Shown here piece after piece: positions 26,829 through 47,816 of a stretch of 64,000 bases of DNA. The position numbers and the translations under genes are program-made. Each line of letters begins with the position of its first letter. Positions within the stretch are counted from its first letter, which is position 1. A model generated the notes under the pieces. It did not search any database. It saw only the letters and a program-made list of their open reading frames with translations, and was not told where the DNA came from. The DNA is from Candidatus Heimdallarchaeota archaeon (GTDB lineage Archaea; Asgardarchaeota; Heimdallarchaeia; Heimdallarchaeales; Heimdallarchaeaceae): the NCBI GenBank assembly GCA_019057815.1, contig JAHLWR010000016.1, positions 1 to 64,000 of the forward strand, written 5' to 3'.

Positions 26829-26958
26829 TAGGAGACAATCAGGTCAGTCTCCTTCCTTCAATAAACTGTCAGAAATTAGATGCCTTCGTAAAAACTTTGC
26901 TAAAATATAAGGAAATAGAATTTAACAAAATGATTCAAGGGTATGATACTCACTGGAT

Positions 26959-27372
26959 CTAGTCTGTGTCTTCTACAGATGCCCATAACACTTGACCATT
27001 ACCAGCATCTACTATGATTTCATAATATGCATTATCATATATTAAAACTATTTTCCACACCAAATAACCATTCTCATTTTCGAGAAAACTGGATACTATA
27101 GTTCCACTTGTAGTATAATCTAACGCAATTTGTTCTGCTTGTATCTGACTGATATCTGCAAAAACTAAGAGATCACCATCGTAATTTTCATCGACAGCTA
27201 TGCTTCCTACATAATCAGGAAACTGATGATCGCCTTCAAAATTGCCGTCTTCCTCTGGTATTATATTAAATGGTAAAGTTATTACACCAGTTACACTAAG
27301 TATTCCAATAACACCAAAAGCCACAAGTAGAAGTGTGCTTGTGCCTAGTATGTATTTTGTTTTTGTTTTCAT
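26959..27372 (-). CDS. membrane-anchored PepSY-domain protein
   Basis: N-terminal TM; ISQIQAEQIAL...LENENGYLVW...VDAGNGQVL; ATG at 27372. Confidence 0.82.
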   Translation of the reverse strand: MKTKTKYILGTSTLLLVAFGVIGILSVTGVITLPFNIIPEEDGNFEGDHQFPDYVGSIAVDENYDGDLLVFADISQIQAEQIALDYTTSGTIVSSFLENENGYLVWKIVLIYDNAYYEIIVDAGNGQVLWASVEDTD

Positions 27373-27489
27373 CAATAGATAAATCTCATCTATATTAAAT
27401 AGGTTATTGGTACAGATTTTTATTCCTCTAGTACAACTATTTAATTTACAGATATTTCTCAAAAAAAAGATAAATAGCACATCCGTCAG

Positions 27490-27531
27490 ATGAACTACTC
27501 CTACCTTAAGGAAGGGAACTTCTGCCATCCA
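27490..27531 (-). mobile_element. 42-bp IS200/IS605 mini-element (fused left and right ends; PATE-like)
   Basis: 27490-27506 is identical to 45713-45729 (right end); 27508-27525 AAGGAAGGGAACTTCTGC closely matches 47038-47055 AAGGAAGGGGATTTCTGC (left end). Confidence 0.8.
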
Positions 27532-28056
27532 TCAGTTAAATTTAGCTTCAATGGAATCTAAAAATCTCTCCCATCTATTTGGGTAAATCTCTCTCCCCAA
27601 TTTGCTTATCAGTTCTTTATCAAATAATAATTCTAGTGTAACTTCTCTACCCCTTCGACAAGGTTTAATCAATTCATCTTCAGTTAGTCTTTTTATGTGC
27701 CAATGTAAAGCAGAAGGAGACATTTCAAGAACTTTTGCTAATTCCTTAATAGATAGATTATGCATTTCTGGTGATTGGCTTAATAGCAACAAAATCTGCC
27801 GTGGGACAGTTTTTCGCAGATTAGCAATAAGTATCATAACACTTCCAATCCTCAACCTCCAAGTAAAATCAAAAAATAGTTTCAAATTGCGATGATGGAC
27901 ACTGATAATTCGTTCTCCTTTTTCCAATCGTTGCAGATGATATTCTACTACACCTAATTGTCGACCTGATTCTTCTAGTATCTGCCTGAAATGAATCCCT
28001 GGATGGGATTCAATTATCTTGTAAATATCTTCTGCAGTGTCGACAAATTCAGTCAC
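27532..28056 (-). CDS. double winged-HTH transcriptional regulator
   Basis: PGIHFRQI...GVVEYHLQRLE and SIKELAKVLEMSPSALHWHIKRL; GGAGG SD before GTG at 28056. Confidence 0.85.
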   Translation of the reverse strand: MTEFVDTAEDIYKIIESHPGIHFRQILEESGRQLGVVEYHLQRLEKGERIISVHHRNLKLFFDFTWRLRIGSVMILIANLRKTVPRQILLLLSQSPEMHNLSIKELAKVLEMSPSALHWHIKRLTEDELIKPCRRGREVTLELLFDKELISKLGREIYPNRWERFLDSIEAKFN

Positions 28057-28060
28057 AAGA

Positions 28061-28462
28061 TTATTCCTCCTGAGGTTTTTTAGGAAGGATTTTTTCTGGA
28101 AGTGTTTTATCAAAAGACGAATTTTCCTGACTTGTCTTTTTCTTTTGTATTTTTTCCTCAAAAGTTATTGGTAGATGTTTTTCTGGTACTAATAAAACAA
28201 TTAAGATCAATAAAACCATAATAAATCCAAAAATAGCAGCAAGCAAATTTGGAATCTCAGAAGACCAATCTTCTGGAAAAAGAACATCCAAATTTCTGAT
28301 TACCACTTGTACAGCAGCAGCAAGAGATGCTAAAAATATCAAGAAAAACTTACGCCTTTTATACCGAACAAATAAACTCAAGAAAATAATTGCAATTATA
28401 AATAAAATGATTCCACTCAAGAAAACAAGTATATCTTCAATATTTGATATTTGAATTGACAT
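28061..28462 (-). CDS. 3-TM membrane protein, likely co-transcribed with the regulator
   Basis: three hydrophobic segments; 4-nt gap to the regulator. Confidence 0.7.
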   Translation of the reverse strand: MSIQISNIEDILVFLSGIILFIIAIIFLSLFVRYKRRKFFLIFLASLAAAVQVVIRNLDVLFPEDWSSEIPNLLAAIFGFIMVLLILIVLLVPEKHLPITFEEKIQKKKTSQENSSFDKTLPEKILPKKPQEE

Positions 28463-45712: not shown

Positions 45713-47061
45713 ATGAACTACTCCTACCTAAAGGTAAGCGTTTCTTGATTCATTGAAAAGACTTGACCACTGATGATTGCTGAAGCAGTGATAGTGATTA
45801 GAGGTCTGTTCTCCACAAGTAAAGAGGCATATCCCTTACCCCTCTTCAAAATGTTTATTGAAGCGTTATAGTCGCGGTCTATCTCTAAGTCGCAATAAGG
45901 ACAAGAGTGTGTCCTATCATTTAATGTCTTAGGAACTATCTCTCCACATCTGGAACATTCTTGAGTAGTACCTCTTGGTGGAACTTTAACTAGTTCTTTA
46001 TCAGCGTTTACAGCTTTATAAGATAAATAGTTGAAGAATATTCCCCATGAAGCGTCGAGAATGTTACGATGGAGTGTGCGTGACCGCTTGTGTTTCTTAT
46101 TACCTTTCTGTGTGAGTCCTTTAATATTCAAGTTTTCCACACAGATAATATCATAATTATCTACATAAAAGTTTGAGACTTTATGTAAGAAGTCTTTACG
46201 CTGGTCAACAGCTTTAGTGTAGAGTTTAGCCAACTGATATTTGGCTTTTAACCAATTCTTTGAACCTTGCTTTTTACGACTAAGAGATTTGTGCTTATTT
46301 TTAAGTTTCTTTAATTGTCTTTCTATGTTTTTAGGATTCTCTATCTCTCGTCCATCCGAATCCACTGCGTAAGAATTTATCCCTACATCTATCCCTACGC
46401 TTTTAGAGGTTTTAGGAAGAGATATAGGAGCGTTCTCTACTTGTATATTAGCGAACCATCTACCTGTTTGAGAACGTTTGAGTATTATGCCCTTGACTTT
46501 GTTTGTACGTATACGATTGTTTAATCCTCTACAATTGATAGTACCTATCTTAGAAAAGGTTAGTTTATTTTTGTTTTCATCTATCTTGAATCCACTCTGG
46601 TTATAGTTGATAGTCTTGTACCATCCTTTTCCTTTGAAACGTAAGTGACCGATCTTATGTCCATTCTTCTTTAATTGTGCTAGACTTTTGATATTTGTCC
46701 ATAGAGTGTAATTGACCATCTGTAAAACTTTAGAATGTACTCCTTTCAATTCGGGAATAGAACTGTTTTTTAGCCCTACTATAAACGATTGAGTTTTGAT
46801 TTGTGTGAGTTTTTCTCCCTTCTCTTGTGCTTTCTTACACTCTTCTAGTAGCCTATTATAGAGTTTTCTACAAATGTCCAACTGTTCAACAAGTTTTGCT
46901 TGTTGCTGTTTATTAGGGTACAGTTGCACTTTGTATGTTAGCATTAGTCCATTTCCTTATCTCCTTAGTACTTTTTTCACTATAAAAAGCTGAGTAATAG
47001 ATGAATAGATGTGTCTATAGCATTCATCCCCCACCTAAAGGAAGGGGATTTCTGCTATGTA
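45713..47061 (-). mobile_element. IS200/IS605-family tnpB-only (IS1341-type) element inserted in dus
   Basis: LE after TTAA with hairpin CCCCTTCC-TTTA-GGTGGGGG; RE hairpin ending in TTCAT; removal restores the dus frame. Confidence 0.88.
45724..46944 (-). CDS. tnpB: TnpB RNA-guided endonuclease
   Basis: YKVQLYP HTH, GIDVG, VENL, CSRCG/CPYC Zn ribbon, DRDYNASINI. Confidence 0.95.
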   Translation of the reverse strand: MLTYKVQLYPNKQQQAKLVEQLDICRKLYNRLLEECKKAQEKGEKLTQIKTQSFIVGLKNSSIPELKGVHSKVLQMVNYTLWTNIKSLAQLKKNGHKIGHLRFKGKGWYKTINYNQSGFKIDENKNKLTFSKIGTINCRGLNNRIRTNKVKGIILKRSQTGRWFANIQVENAPISLPKTSKSVGIDVGINSYAVDSDGREIENPKNIERQLKKLKNKHKSLSRKKQGSKNWLKAKYQLAKLYTKAVDQRKDFLHKVSNFYVDNYDIICVENLNIKGLTQKGNKKHKRSRTLHRNILDASWGIFFNYLSYKAVNADKELVKVPPRGTTQECSRCGEIVPKTLNDRTHSCPYCDLEIDRDYNASINILKRGKGYASLLVENRPLITITASAIISGQVFSMNQETLTFR

Positions 47062-47816
47062 TTAAGATTAAATTCGCGGTTCTTACACAATTCTATATAT
47101 TCTTGTCTTACATCTTTTAATGTAGGTACTTTCATATTTTTTAATTGCCCAAATATCAACGGATTATTCATCGCAGCTCTGCCAATCATAACTCCAACGC
47201 AACCGATTTCCTTCATTTTCTTTACATCCTCCTTAGTTTTAATATCGCCATTAGCAACAATGTCTTTTCCTGTATTTACACATTCAGAAAAAACCCCCCA
47301 ATCTGCTTTTATTTCATAGGACTCGGATCTATGTCTAGCATGTACTATAAAGAAATCTGCATCTACTCTTTCTATTAAACTAAGATATACTTTTTCTTTT
47401 TTTTCAGTTTTGTTTACTCCAAGACGTAACTTAATATTGACATTATAACCATAATTTTTAACAATATCAACCATTCTTTTGATTTTTGTTGGTCTTTTAA
47501 TCATTGCACTCCCAATACCTTGTTTAACATACGTTTGTGAAGGGCAACAAAGATTCAGGTTGAAACCTTGAAAACCTTTTTCAGGAGAAAAACCAGATAT
47601 AAACTCTTCTAGTTTTTGCTCATTCTTACCCATAATCTGGATCATAGTAGGAGTATCATCGTAAAGTACAATCCTCTTCAAAGCAGATTTATTTTTCTTC
47701 ACTAATGTTTCAAATCTTGTTAGTTCTGTAAAAGTAAGATCAGCACCATATTTGTGACAGAGATATCTAAAACTAGAATCTGCCAACTTTTCCATAGGTG
47801 CTAGCATATACTGCAT
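47055..47816 (-). CDS. dus: tRNA-dihydrouridine synthase, last 10 codons displaced by the IS
   Basis: LAPME, FR.LC..YGADL.FTE, NLNLCCP, GIGS, VHAR, ANGDI, GVMIGRAA; displaced tail YSENVLKSLK* at 45711-45679. Confidence 0.88.
   Translation of the reverse strand: MQYMLAPMEKLADSSFRYLCHKYGADLTFTELTRFETLVKKNKSALKRIVLYDDTPTMIQIMGKNEQKLEEFISGFSPEKGFQGFNLNLCCPSQTYVKQGIGSAMIKRPTKIKRMVDIVKNYGYNVNIKLRLGVNKTEKKEKVYLSLIERVDADFFIVHARHRSESYEIKADWGVFSECVNTGKDIVANGDIKTKEDVKKMKEIGCVGVMIGRAAMNNPLIFGQLKNMKVPTLKDVRQEYIELCKNREFNLNT

Follow-up and report, generated by a model that had tools for sequence, protein, structure and literature searches.

PATEs were defined in the haloarchaeon Haloquadratum walsbyi (Dyall-Smith et al. 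2011; PMC3119063). The parts of that report cited here describe core deletions between near-terminal palindromes, by which a 1500-bp tnpB-only element, ISHwa23, gave rise to a 52-bp terminal-only PATE. They also describe six strain-specific insertions of 52-bp PATEs, which the authors suggested to be mobilizable, and other elements inserted into PATE palindromes. Gene-less PATE-like ISGst elements are present in Geobacillus stearothermophilus (Meers et al. 2023; 10.1101/2023.03.14.532601). According to the section of that work used here, they are, like the units described below, non-autonomous IS200/IS605 elements recognized by their common ends, and a single TnpA is predicted to mobilize them in trans. 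The same section states that PATEs often still encode omegaRNA, whereas the units studied here have no room for a guide-RNA scaffold and keep a single hairpin. The peel-and-paste paradigm is IS608 of Helicobacter pylori. In the portion of the IS608 work cited here (PMC3201880), TnpA does not itself read the cleavage sites, which are instead recognized by base pairing with a tetranucleotide 5' of each hairpin foot (at the left end, TTAC pairs with AAAG), and a dimer of the IS608-type TnpA is bound to two hairpins.

The window analyzed here, a 64,000-nt stretch of DNA from Candidatus Heimdallarchaeota archaeon, is contig C46 of an assembly of 48 contigs (3.74 Mb, 32.8% G+C, 95% complete; designated G000). 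The one other species of the genus, the sister species, is represented by an assembly of 390 contigs (89% complete; G001). On the minus strand of the window, positions 27490 to 27531 join a left-end-like half to the right-end half of a tnpB-only IS200/IS605 element located at 45713 to 47067. The first-pass annotation, which quoted the letters of this strand correctly, was thus right to describe a hybrid of two ends. Numbered along the plus strand, the first 17 nt (27490 to 27506) are identical to the right end at 45713 to 45729, as had been noted, and the claimed left-end match is borne out by the last 22 nt (27510 to 27531), which differ from 47040 to 47061 at five positions. With up to 3 mismatches allowed, the right-end 17 nt had 2 matches in the window versus 0.16 expected. 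A degenerate pattern made from 27510-27531 and 47040-47061 found no third site in the window, with 0.01 expected by chance; being derived from both window sequences, it is circular as to those two copies.

Family alignment and empty sites elsewhere show that the true unit is longer than the 42 bp originally delimited. It comprises 46 nt, 27490 to 27535 on the minus strand, in which the fused ends surround one imperfect hairpin. We refer to such 46-nt gene-less units as minis and to this one as the window copy. It was recovered across its full length by nhmmer (E 9e-12) and by covariance model R1 with 71.5 bits (E 4e-12). The element lies 3' of a TTTAA target at 27536 to 27540 (minus strand), a transposon-adjacent motif that nearly all minis and full copies have in common on their left side. 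Its left-end tract (27518 to 27535) extends from the left tip through the block that precedes the hairpin foot and ends with AAGT; this block, CAGAAGT, is among the best conserved columns. The hairpin, as read from the sequence, occupies 27498 to 27517, with 8-nt arms at 27510 to 27517 and 27498 to 27505 and the loop TTAA at 27506 to 27509. The remaining 8 nt (27490 to 27497) form the right-end tail, a highly conserved block that recurs unchanged in the right ends of 8 full IS copies and ends with TTCAT, the cleavage motif inside the element. There is no protein-coding capacity in the 46 nt, since the sole ORF overlap is the stop codon of a neighboring gene. The CTGA reported on both sides is present, but the family alignment ruled out the pair as a target duplication: the left CTGA is formed by the first four nucleotides of the element, for which the family consensus is YTGA or YTGT, and the right one is flank.

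The window copy is closer to subfamily B of the IS family than to the element 18 kb away. Its right part shares 26 identical nucleotides with the subfamily-B right end at G000 C38:12983-13008 and 25 with the right end at C4:58713-58737. The switch between left and right sequence had been placed in the shared hairpin loop; against the subfamily-B copies, it falls in the 5' hairpin arm.

The element 18 kb away is a full-length member of subfamily A (45713 to 47067, minus strand; Pfam OrfB_IS605, Cas12f1-like_TNB and HTH_OrfB_IS605) with a tnpB gene for a 406-aa TnpB at 45727 to 46944. Its span had been given as 45713 to 47061. The left boundary is better placed at 47067, with the target TTTAA at 47068 to 47072, because the similarity to a copy on contig C35 extends as far as this TTTAA and the flank beyond it is different. 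This boundary is preferred over the one at CTTAA (47062 to 47066); the two differ by 6 nt, and therefore either leaves the interrupted gene in frame. In G000, tnpB is present in 8 full copies and 4 copies at contig ends, with amino acid identities of 95 to 100% in subfamily A and about 80% in subfamily B. The right-end motif is identical in the 8 full copies and has 9 exact matches in the genome, including the window copy. An empty site in G000 (C5:~37718) corresponds to the site of a full IS at G001:C201. The filled site contains an element that begins with TGAAC and ends with TTCAT without duplication, while in the empty site the right flank directly follows TTTAA. We conclude that the full IS inserts 3' of TTTAA without target duplication. 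One truncated IS (G000 C1:175354-175851) retains the left end and the first 67 tnpB codons; the orthologous copy in G001 is full, and relative to it the remainder has been deleted together with the right end and 37 nt of flanking DNA, without use of the palindromes.

A search of the genome for more copies, which the first-pass annotation had proposed, revealed that the window copy is not a one-off scar but belongs to a family that is dispersed in about 30 copies in each genome. With up to 2 mismatches, the right-end 17-mer had 22 matches in G000, versus 1 for a reversed control; judged from the upstream sequence, some of these matches are full-IS right ends and the others are short copies built like the window copy. 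Using an HMM of 15 short copies, nhmmer detected approximately 30 near-full-length minis in G000 in addition to the left and right ends of full copies. A strict IUPAC pattern recovered only 2 copies in G001; covariance model R1, used in its place, had 28 matches in each of the two genomes, a few of them being full-IS ends. Overall, we count about 25 to 35 minis in G000 and about 25 in the sister species, and minis outnumber full copies by about 3 to 1. All short copies follow TTTAA, are about 45 to 46 nt long and end with TTCAT, and the sequence is unrelated outside both ends. The boundaries of the minis are thus those of the parent IS.

Beyond the genus, the covariance model had single weak matches in two genomes of a neighboring genus and no match in 36 other relatives. 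The two neighboring-genus genomes are complete, and their matches (G004:C1:921237-921289 and G007:C1:1020039-1020091; L081 and L082) represent one orthologous degenerate mini. Therefore, the mini family or its parent IS is older than the genus. The 3' hairpin arm is right-end-like in 18 minis and left-end-like in 10, with 15 undecided. Such heterogeneous junctions fit several births of the short form, or descent from an older IS with two similar hairpins.

To compare sites between G000 and G001, we relied on flanks that are about 90 to 95% identical. Among the G000 mini sites examined, 19 were occupied in both species, 3 lacked the mini in G001 and 6 were uninformative. The three minis absent from G001 (C26:7493, C43:33756 and C5:54291) correspond there to gaps of 45 to 46 nt at the element boundaries. 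The fit is exact for C43 and exact to 1 nt for C5; for C26 the left side is clean and the right tip is degenerate. In these empty sites, the right flank directly follows TTTAA or, in one case, the near variant TTAA. The uninformative sites are the window copy and five G000-only copies that have one flank in a larger difference, namely, C24:75255 (bordering a 21-kb segment), C3:14406 (flanked by tandem paralogues), C35:32228, C12:151858 and C44:66820; in G001, minis on C37 and C10 are uninformative for the same reason. Since at least 19 copies are common to both species, most are old and there has been little or no recent activity.

The syntenic position in G001 lacks a segment of approximately 21 kb (G000 C24:53936-75310), one end of which coincides with the TTTAA side of the mini at C24:75255-75304, and several other minis are found at borders of larger differences between the two genomes. 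At G000 C39:27506-29358, a long/short pair first regarded as a deletion scar is actually a mini interrupted in its loop: the hairpin loop is split by about 1.85 kb containing an antisense 501-aa TnpB-like ORF, with inverted-repeat ends next to CATG, and the orthologue in G001 (L044:2353-2408) is intact. The mini at G001 C36:8323-8397 (L056) is likewise broken at the hairpin loop; its left half is intact up to the loop and is followed by unrelated sequence.

Classical MITEs are not an appropriate class for the minis, which show no duplication at empty sites and have at most 5 complementary tip nucleotides, in one variant. Instead, they have the features of terminal-only PATEs: no gene, IS605-type tips together with a near-terminal palindrome, a left target motif, multiple copies with presence/absence polymorphism, and neither terminal inverted repeats nor target duplication. 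In line with this, the 52-bp ISHwa23/HqIRS46 PATEs and the minis are both about 50 bp long and gene-less, consisting of fused termini of a tnpB-only IS605-type element with one near-terminal palindrome (PMC3119063). In the part of that work cited here, the Haloquadratum PATEs, like the minis, lack inverted terminal repeats and target duplication but have a short conserved targeting oligonucleotide on the left, some copies occur in more than one strain (here, species) while a few are specific, and the palindrome is hit by other mobile elements, as at G000 C39 (PMC3119063). The minis differ in their host, a Heimdall-group Asgard archaeon and not a haloarchaeon, and in their target, TTTAA. We conclude that the mini family is of the same kind as the Haloquadratum terminal-only PATEs, in a new host. 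For the window copy, we favor the reading, with a probability of about 0.7, that it is a decaying terminal-only PATE, i.e., a gene-less derivative of a tnpB-only IS200/IS605 element that could be mobilized in trans by TnpA. A PATE- or REP-like unit had been one of two alternatives offered at first, and it is now the better supported one, given approximately 30 copies, boundaries identical to those of the IS and three polymorphic sites; mobilization by TnpA in trans would be the presumed means of its spread.

The other alternative offered was recombination between the two similar hairpins that deleted tnpB. As the origin of the family this is likely, in view of the heterogeneous junctions and the precedent in the cited part of the Haloquadratum report (PMC3119063), and it may apply to the window copy, although no site with a full IS in one genome and a mini in the other was found. 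It becomes a rival if each short copy is taken as an independent scar, namely, a separate full-IS insertion that lost its core in situ by palindrome slippage, the short form being immobile. We consider this unlikely. Core deletions of this sort are documented between Haloquadratum strains in the cited part of that work (PMC3119063), the left and right hairpins have the loop and neighboring bases in common, and the mixture of 18 right-type, 10 left-type and 15 undecided junctions fits several births; furthermore, a truncation of another kind occurred at G000 C1:175536. However, four full-versus-mini pairs at one site are described in that part of the Haloquadratum report (PMC3119063), and none was caught among the 4 to 5 comparable IS sites and 28 mini sites analyzed here. 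The ratio of about three minis to each full copy also argues against immobile scars. Moreover, the right-end motif, in which the current full copies are near-identical, is changed at 4 of about 16 positions in the three polymorphic minis. With such diverged ends, these minis are unlikely to be fresh full-IS insertions that collapsed.

The three polymorphic sites therefore favor insertion or excision of the mini itself, two events that are indistinguishable here because no outgroup is close enough. They could also reflect sorting of ancestral polymorphisms, or insertion of a full IS followed by core deletion.

The gene upstream of the window copy is a winged-helix regulator ORF at 27532 to 28161 on the minus strand (Pfam HTH_24, HTH_HVO_0163_N and MarR; 174 aa in the database gene call). 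The element had been placed directly after the stop codon of this regulator. This is not so: the TGA stop (27532 to 27534) lies inside the element, within its first 4 nt. The last codon, AAC, straddles the junction between target and element and only its C (27535) belongs to the element, so that the regulator reads TTT-AAC-TGA across the junction. The flank past the element again begins with CTGA, and hence the end of the regulator protein was unchanged by the insertion. The window copy stands at the start of a 159-nt spacer (27373 to 27531) before a downstream PepSY-domain gene (26959 to 27372, minus strand; Pfam PepSY, E 4.7e-10). When the DNA of 26950-28170 was compared with 40 relatives, repeat copies were the sole matches, and among 5.8 billion proteins the regulator had no close homologue, the single other match being 59% identical. 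In the genomes searched there is thus no orthologous locus, and we infer the history of the window copy from that of its family: a mini would have landed on a TTTAA within the last codons of the regulator gene, and the first four bases of the element (CTGA) would have rebuilt the gene end AAC-TGA, making the insertion harmless.

This logic extends to other copies. Ten of 30 minis, about one third, lie exactly on the stop codon of a long ORF. In 8 of them, the TGA or TAA in the right tip is the stop codon of an opposite-strand ORF of 127 to 788 aa; on the strand of this ORF, the tip reads ATGA, or ATAA in two copies. The frame of these 8 ORFs implies that the stop before insertion was TAA, the complement of the TTTAA target. 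TTTAA sites of the TAA-stop kind account for only 3.2% of the sites that do not disrupt an ORF (binomial P about 3e-6; the ORFs were delimited mechanically and not curated, with at least 70 aa required for minis and at least 100 aa for the background). Insertion on the TAA split the last codon, and the right tip put TGA or TAA back in frame. In the window copy, the same stop-restoring logic applies on the sense strand. A strong stop-codon association like that of the minis is not among the properties reported for the Haloquadratum PATEs in the part of that work cited here (PMC3119063).

The position at gene ends raises the alternative that the hairpins are a motif adopted by the host for termination, RNA stabilization or protein binding, functions that have been proposed for bacterial REPs. 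It is in favor of such a role that 10 of the 30 copies are exactly at gene ends and that the window copy follows the regulator gene, and the first-pass annotation had suggested that the window copy may now act as a terminator. The structural and evolutionary data do not support this. As single-stranded DNA, the window copy folds with -3.1 kcal/mol (z 0.45), no better than shuffled sequences. In an alignment of 44 copies, the hairpin pairs were standard in 76.5% of the cells versus 76.6% after shuffling, i.e., compensatory change was not detected. Twelve orthologous pairs of minis were 83% identical inside the element but 90% identical in the 150-nt flanks on either side. We conclude that the minis decay neutrally, without hairpin compensation and with faster divergence than their flanks. 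An Rfam search assigned no family to the mini, and the family is essentially confined to one genus. As for termination, no stable G+C-rich hairpin directly followed by a T run, as in an intrinsic terminator, is present, and a T8 tract (27461 to 27468) begins 21 nt downstream of the window copy. Termination in archaea is directed by oligo-T and not by hairpins, and we take this T8 tract to be the more likely termination signal. The gene-end position is explained by target choice together with purifying selection. In summary, the window copy has no detectable host function now, and adoption by the host is a very improbable explanation of the family.

How could such a unit be mobilized? The full IS would have lost its core between its two similar subterminal palindromes, probably more than once, giving rise to the mini family. 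Only four parts of the parent are kept: one imperfect hairpin, the block that precedes its foot, the left tip, and the right-hand tail of 8 nt that ends with TTCAT. The 46-nt product still has both cleavage contexts, TTTAA at the left and TTCAT at the right tip. A Y1 (HuH) TnpA acting in trans could then cut the mini from single-stranded DNA, and the excised unit could be pasted 3' of another TTTAA, as for the parent IS. The geometry is consistent with this model, since the distance from the left cleavage site to the hairpin foot is about 17 to 18 nt and that from the foot to the right cleavage site is 8 nt. In the respects covered by the cited part of the IS608 work, the minis resemble IS608 in having a subterminal imperfect palindrome, similar foot distances, and a left cleavage motif external to the element, the right one being internal (PMC3201880). 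Both have a 4-nt block 5' of the foot that is able to pair with the cleavage motif, TTAC-AAAG in IS608 and TTAA-AAAT/AAGT in the minis and the parent IS (PMC3201880). TTAA is opposite AAAT in subfamily A, and in the minis and subfamily B it is opposite AAGT; the pattern of IS608 is maintained, the fourth position having changed to match. Judged from its position under the IS608 rule (PMC3201880), the AAGT in 27518 to 27535 would be the guide for TTAA. In contrast to the mini, which is gene-less and has one hairpin and one guide block, IS608 carries tnpA and has two hairpins bound by a TnpA dimer, as far as that part describes it (PMC3201880). This argues against mobility: a dimer that takes two hairpins would meet only one, and both ends would have to be cleaved.

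Only three Y1 genes (PF01797) were found, on G000 contigs C8 and C4 and in G001, and all of them are part of a tnpA-tnpB element. The two G000 copies (C8:9950-11700 and C4:62369-64100; L023 and L024) are IS608-like, with the tetranucleotides TTAC/AAAG and TCAA/GAAT, those of Helicobacter IS608. The right hairpin and tail of this resident element are close to those of the mini family, while its left hairpin is different. Cross-mobilization of the minis by its TnpA appears plausible from these likenesses. In the assembly, no tnpA was found adjoining any member of the tnpB-only IS family; a cognate tnpA may also be missing from the 95%-complete assembly.

An association with Y1 enzymes is also a property of REP/REPIN sequences and their RAYTs, which, like the minis, are short multicopy single imperfect hairpins often located just after genes (PMC3116915, PMC8266576). 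The minis could accordingly be viewed as a REP-like system run by a domesticated RAYT-type Y1 enzyme and not as an IS derivative, and their single hairpin with a conserved 5' block is indeed arranged as in REPs. We give this view even less credence than adoption by the host. Both Y1 genes of G000 belong to an ordinary tnpA-tnpB IS with IS608-type ends, both tips of the mini are those of a resident IS, and no inverted REP doublets were present among the nhmmer matches listed. Unlike REP/REPIN systems, the minis have no RAYT-like single-copy Y1 gene and no inverted doublets among those matches, they are far fewer, and they carry the tips of a resident IS (PMC3116915, PMC8266576). Finally, a chance likeness of a short AT-rich intergenic stretch to IS ends, for which one could cite the shortness of the halves (17 and 22 nt) and the 5 mismatches of the left half to the nearby IS, is refuted by the covariance model E-value of 4e-12, the approximately 30 aligned copies with sharp common boundaries and the reversed-pattern control (1 match versus 22), and is hardly credible.

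A bolder extension of the PATE reading, which we put forward tentatively and hold to be doubtful, is that the 46-nt single-hairpin unit is a fully competent Y1 substrate, that it represents a living intermediate between the ends of IS200/IS605 and REP-like elements, and that its tips are shaped to restore hits on TAA stops as TGA or TAA. If this were true, one hairpin and one guide block would direct both cuts, and the minis would rank among the smallest known transposable units; moreover, their tips would allow cost-free colonization of gene ends in a compact Asgard genome.

The minis add a clean Asgard case to the little-studied terminal-only PATEs and sharpen the question of how a transposase that normally pairs two hairpins handles an element with one. 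They fix the TTTAA target and both tips of a TnpB element family, which aids genome annotators and TnpB users. For annotation of this genus, they also mean that approximately 30 short hairpin repeats are transposon relics and not regulatory sites. The stop-codon pattern shows that insertions at gene ends can be rendered neutral by the choice of target in combination with the sequence of the tip.
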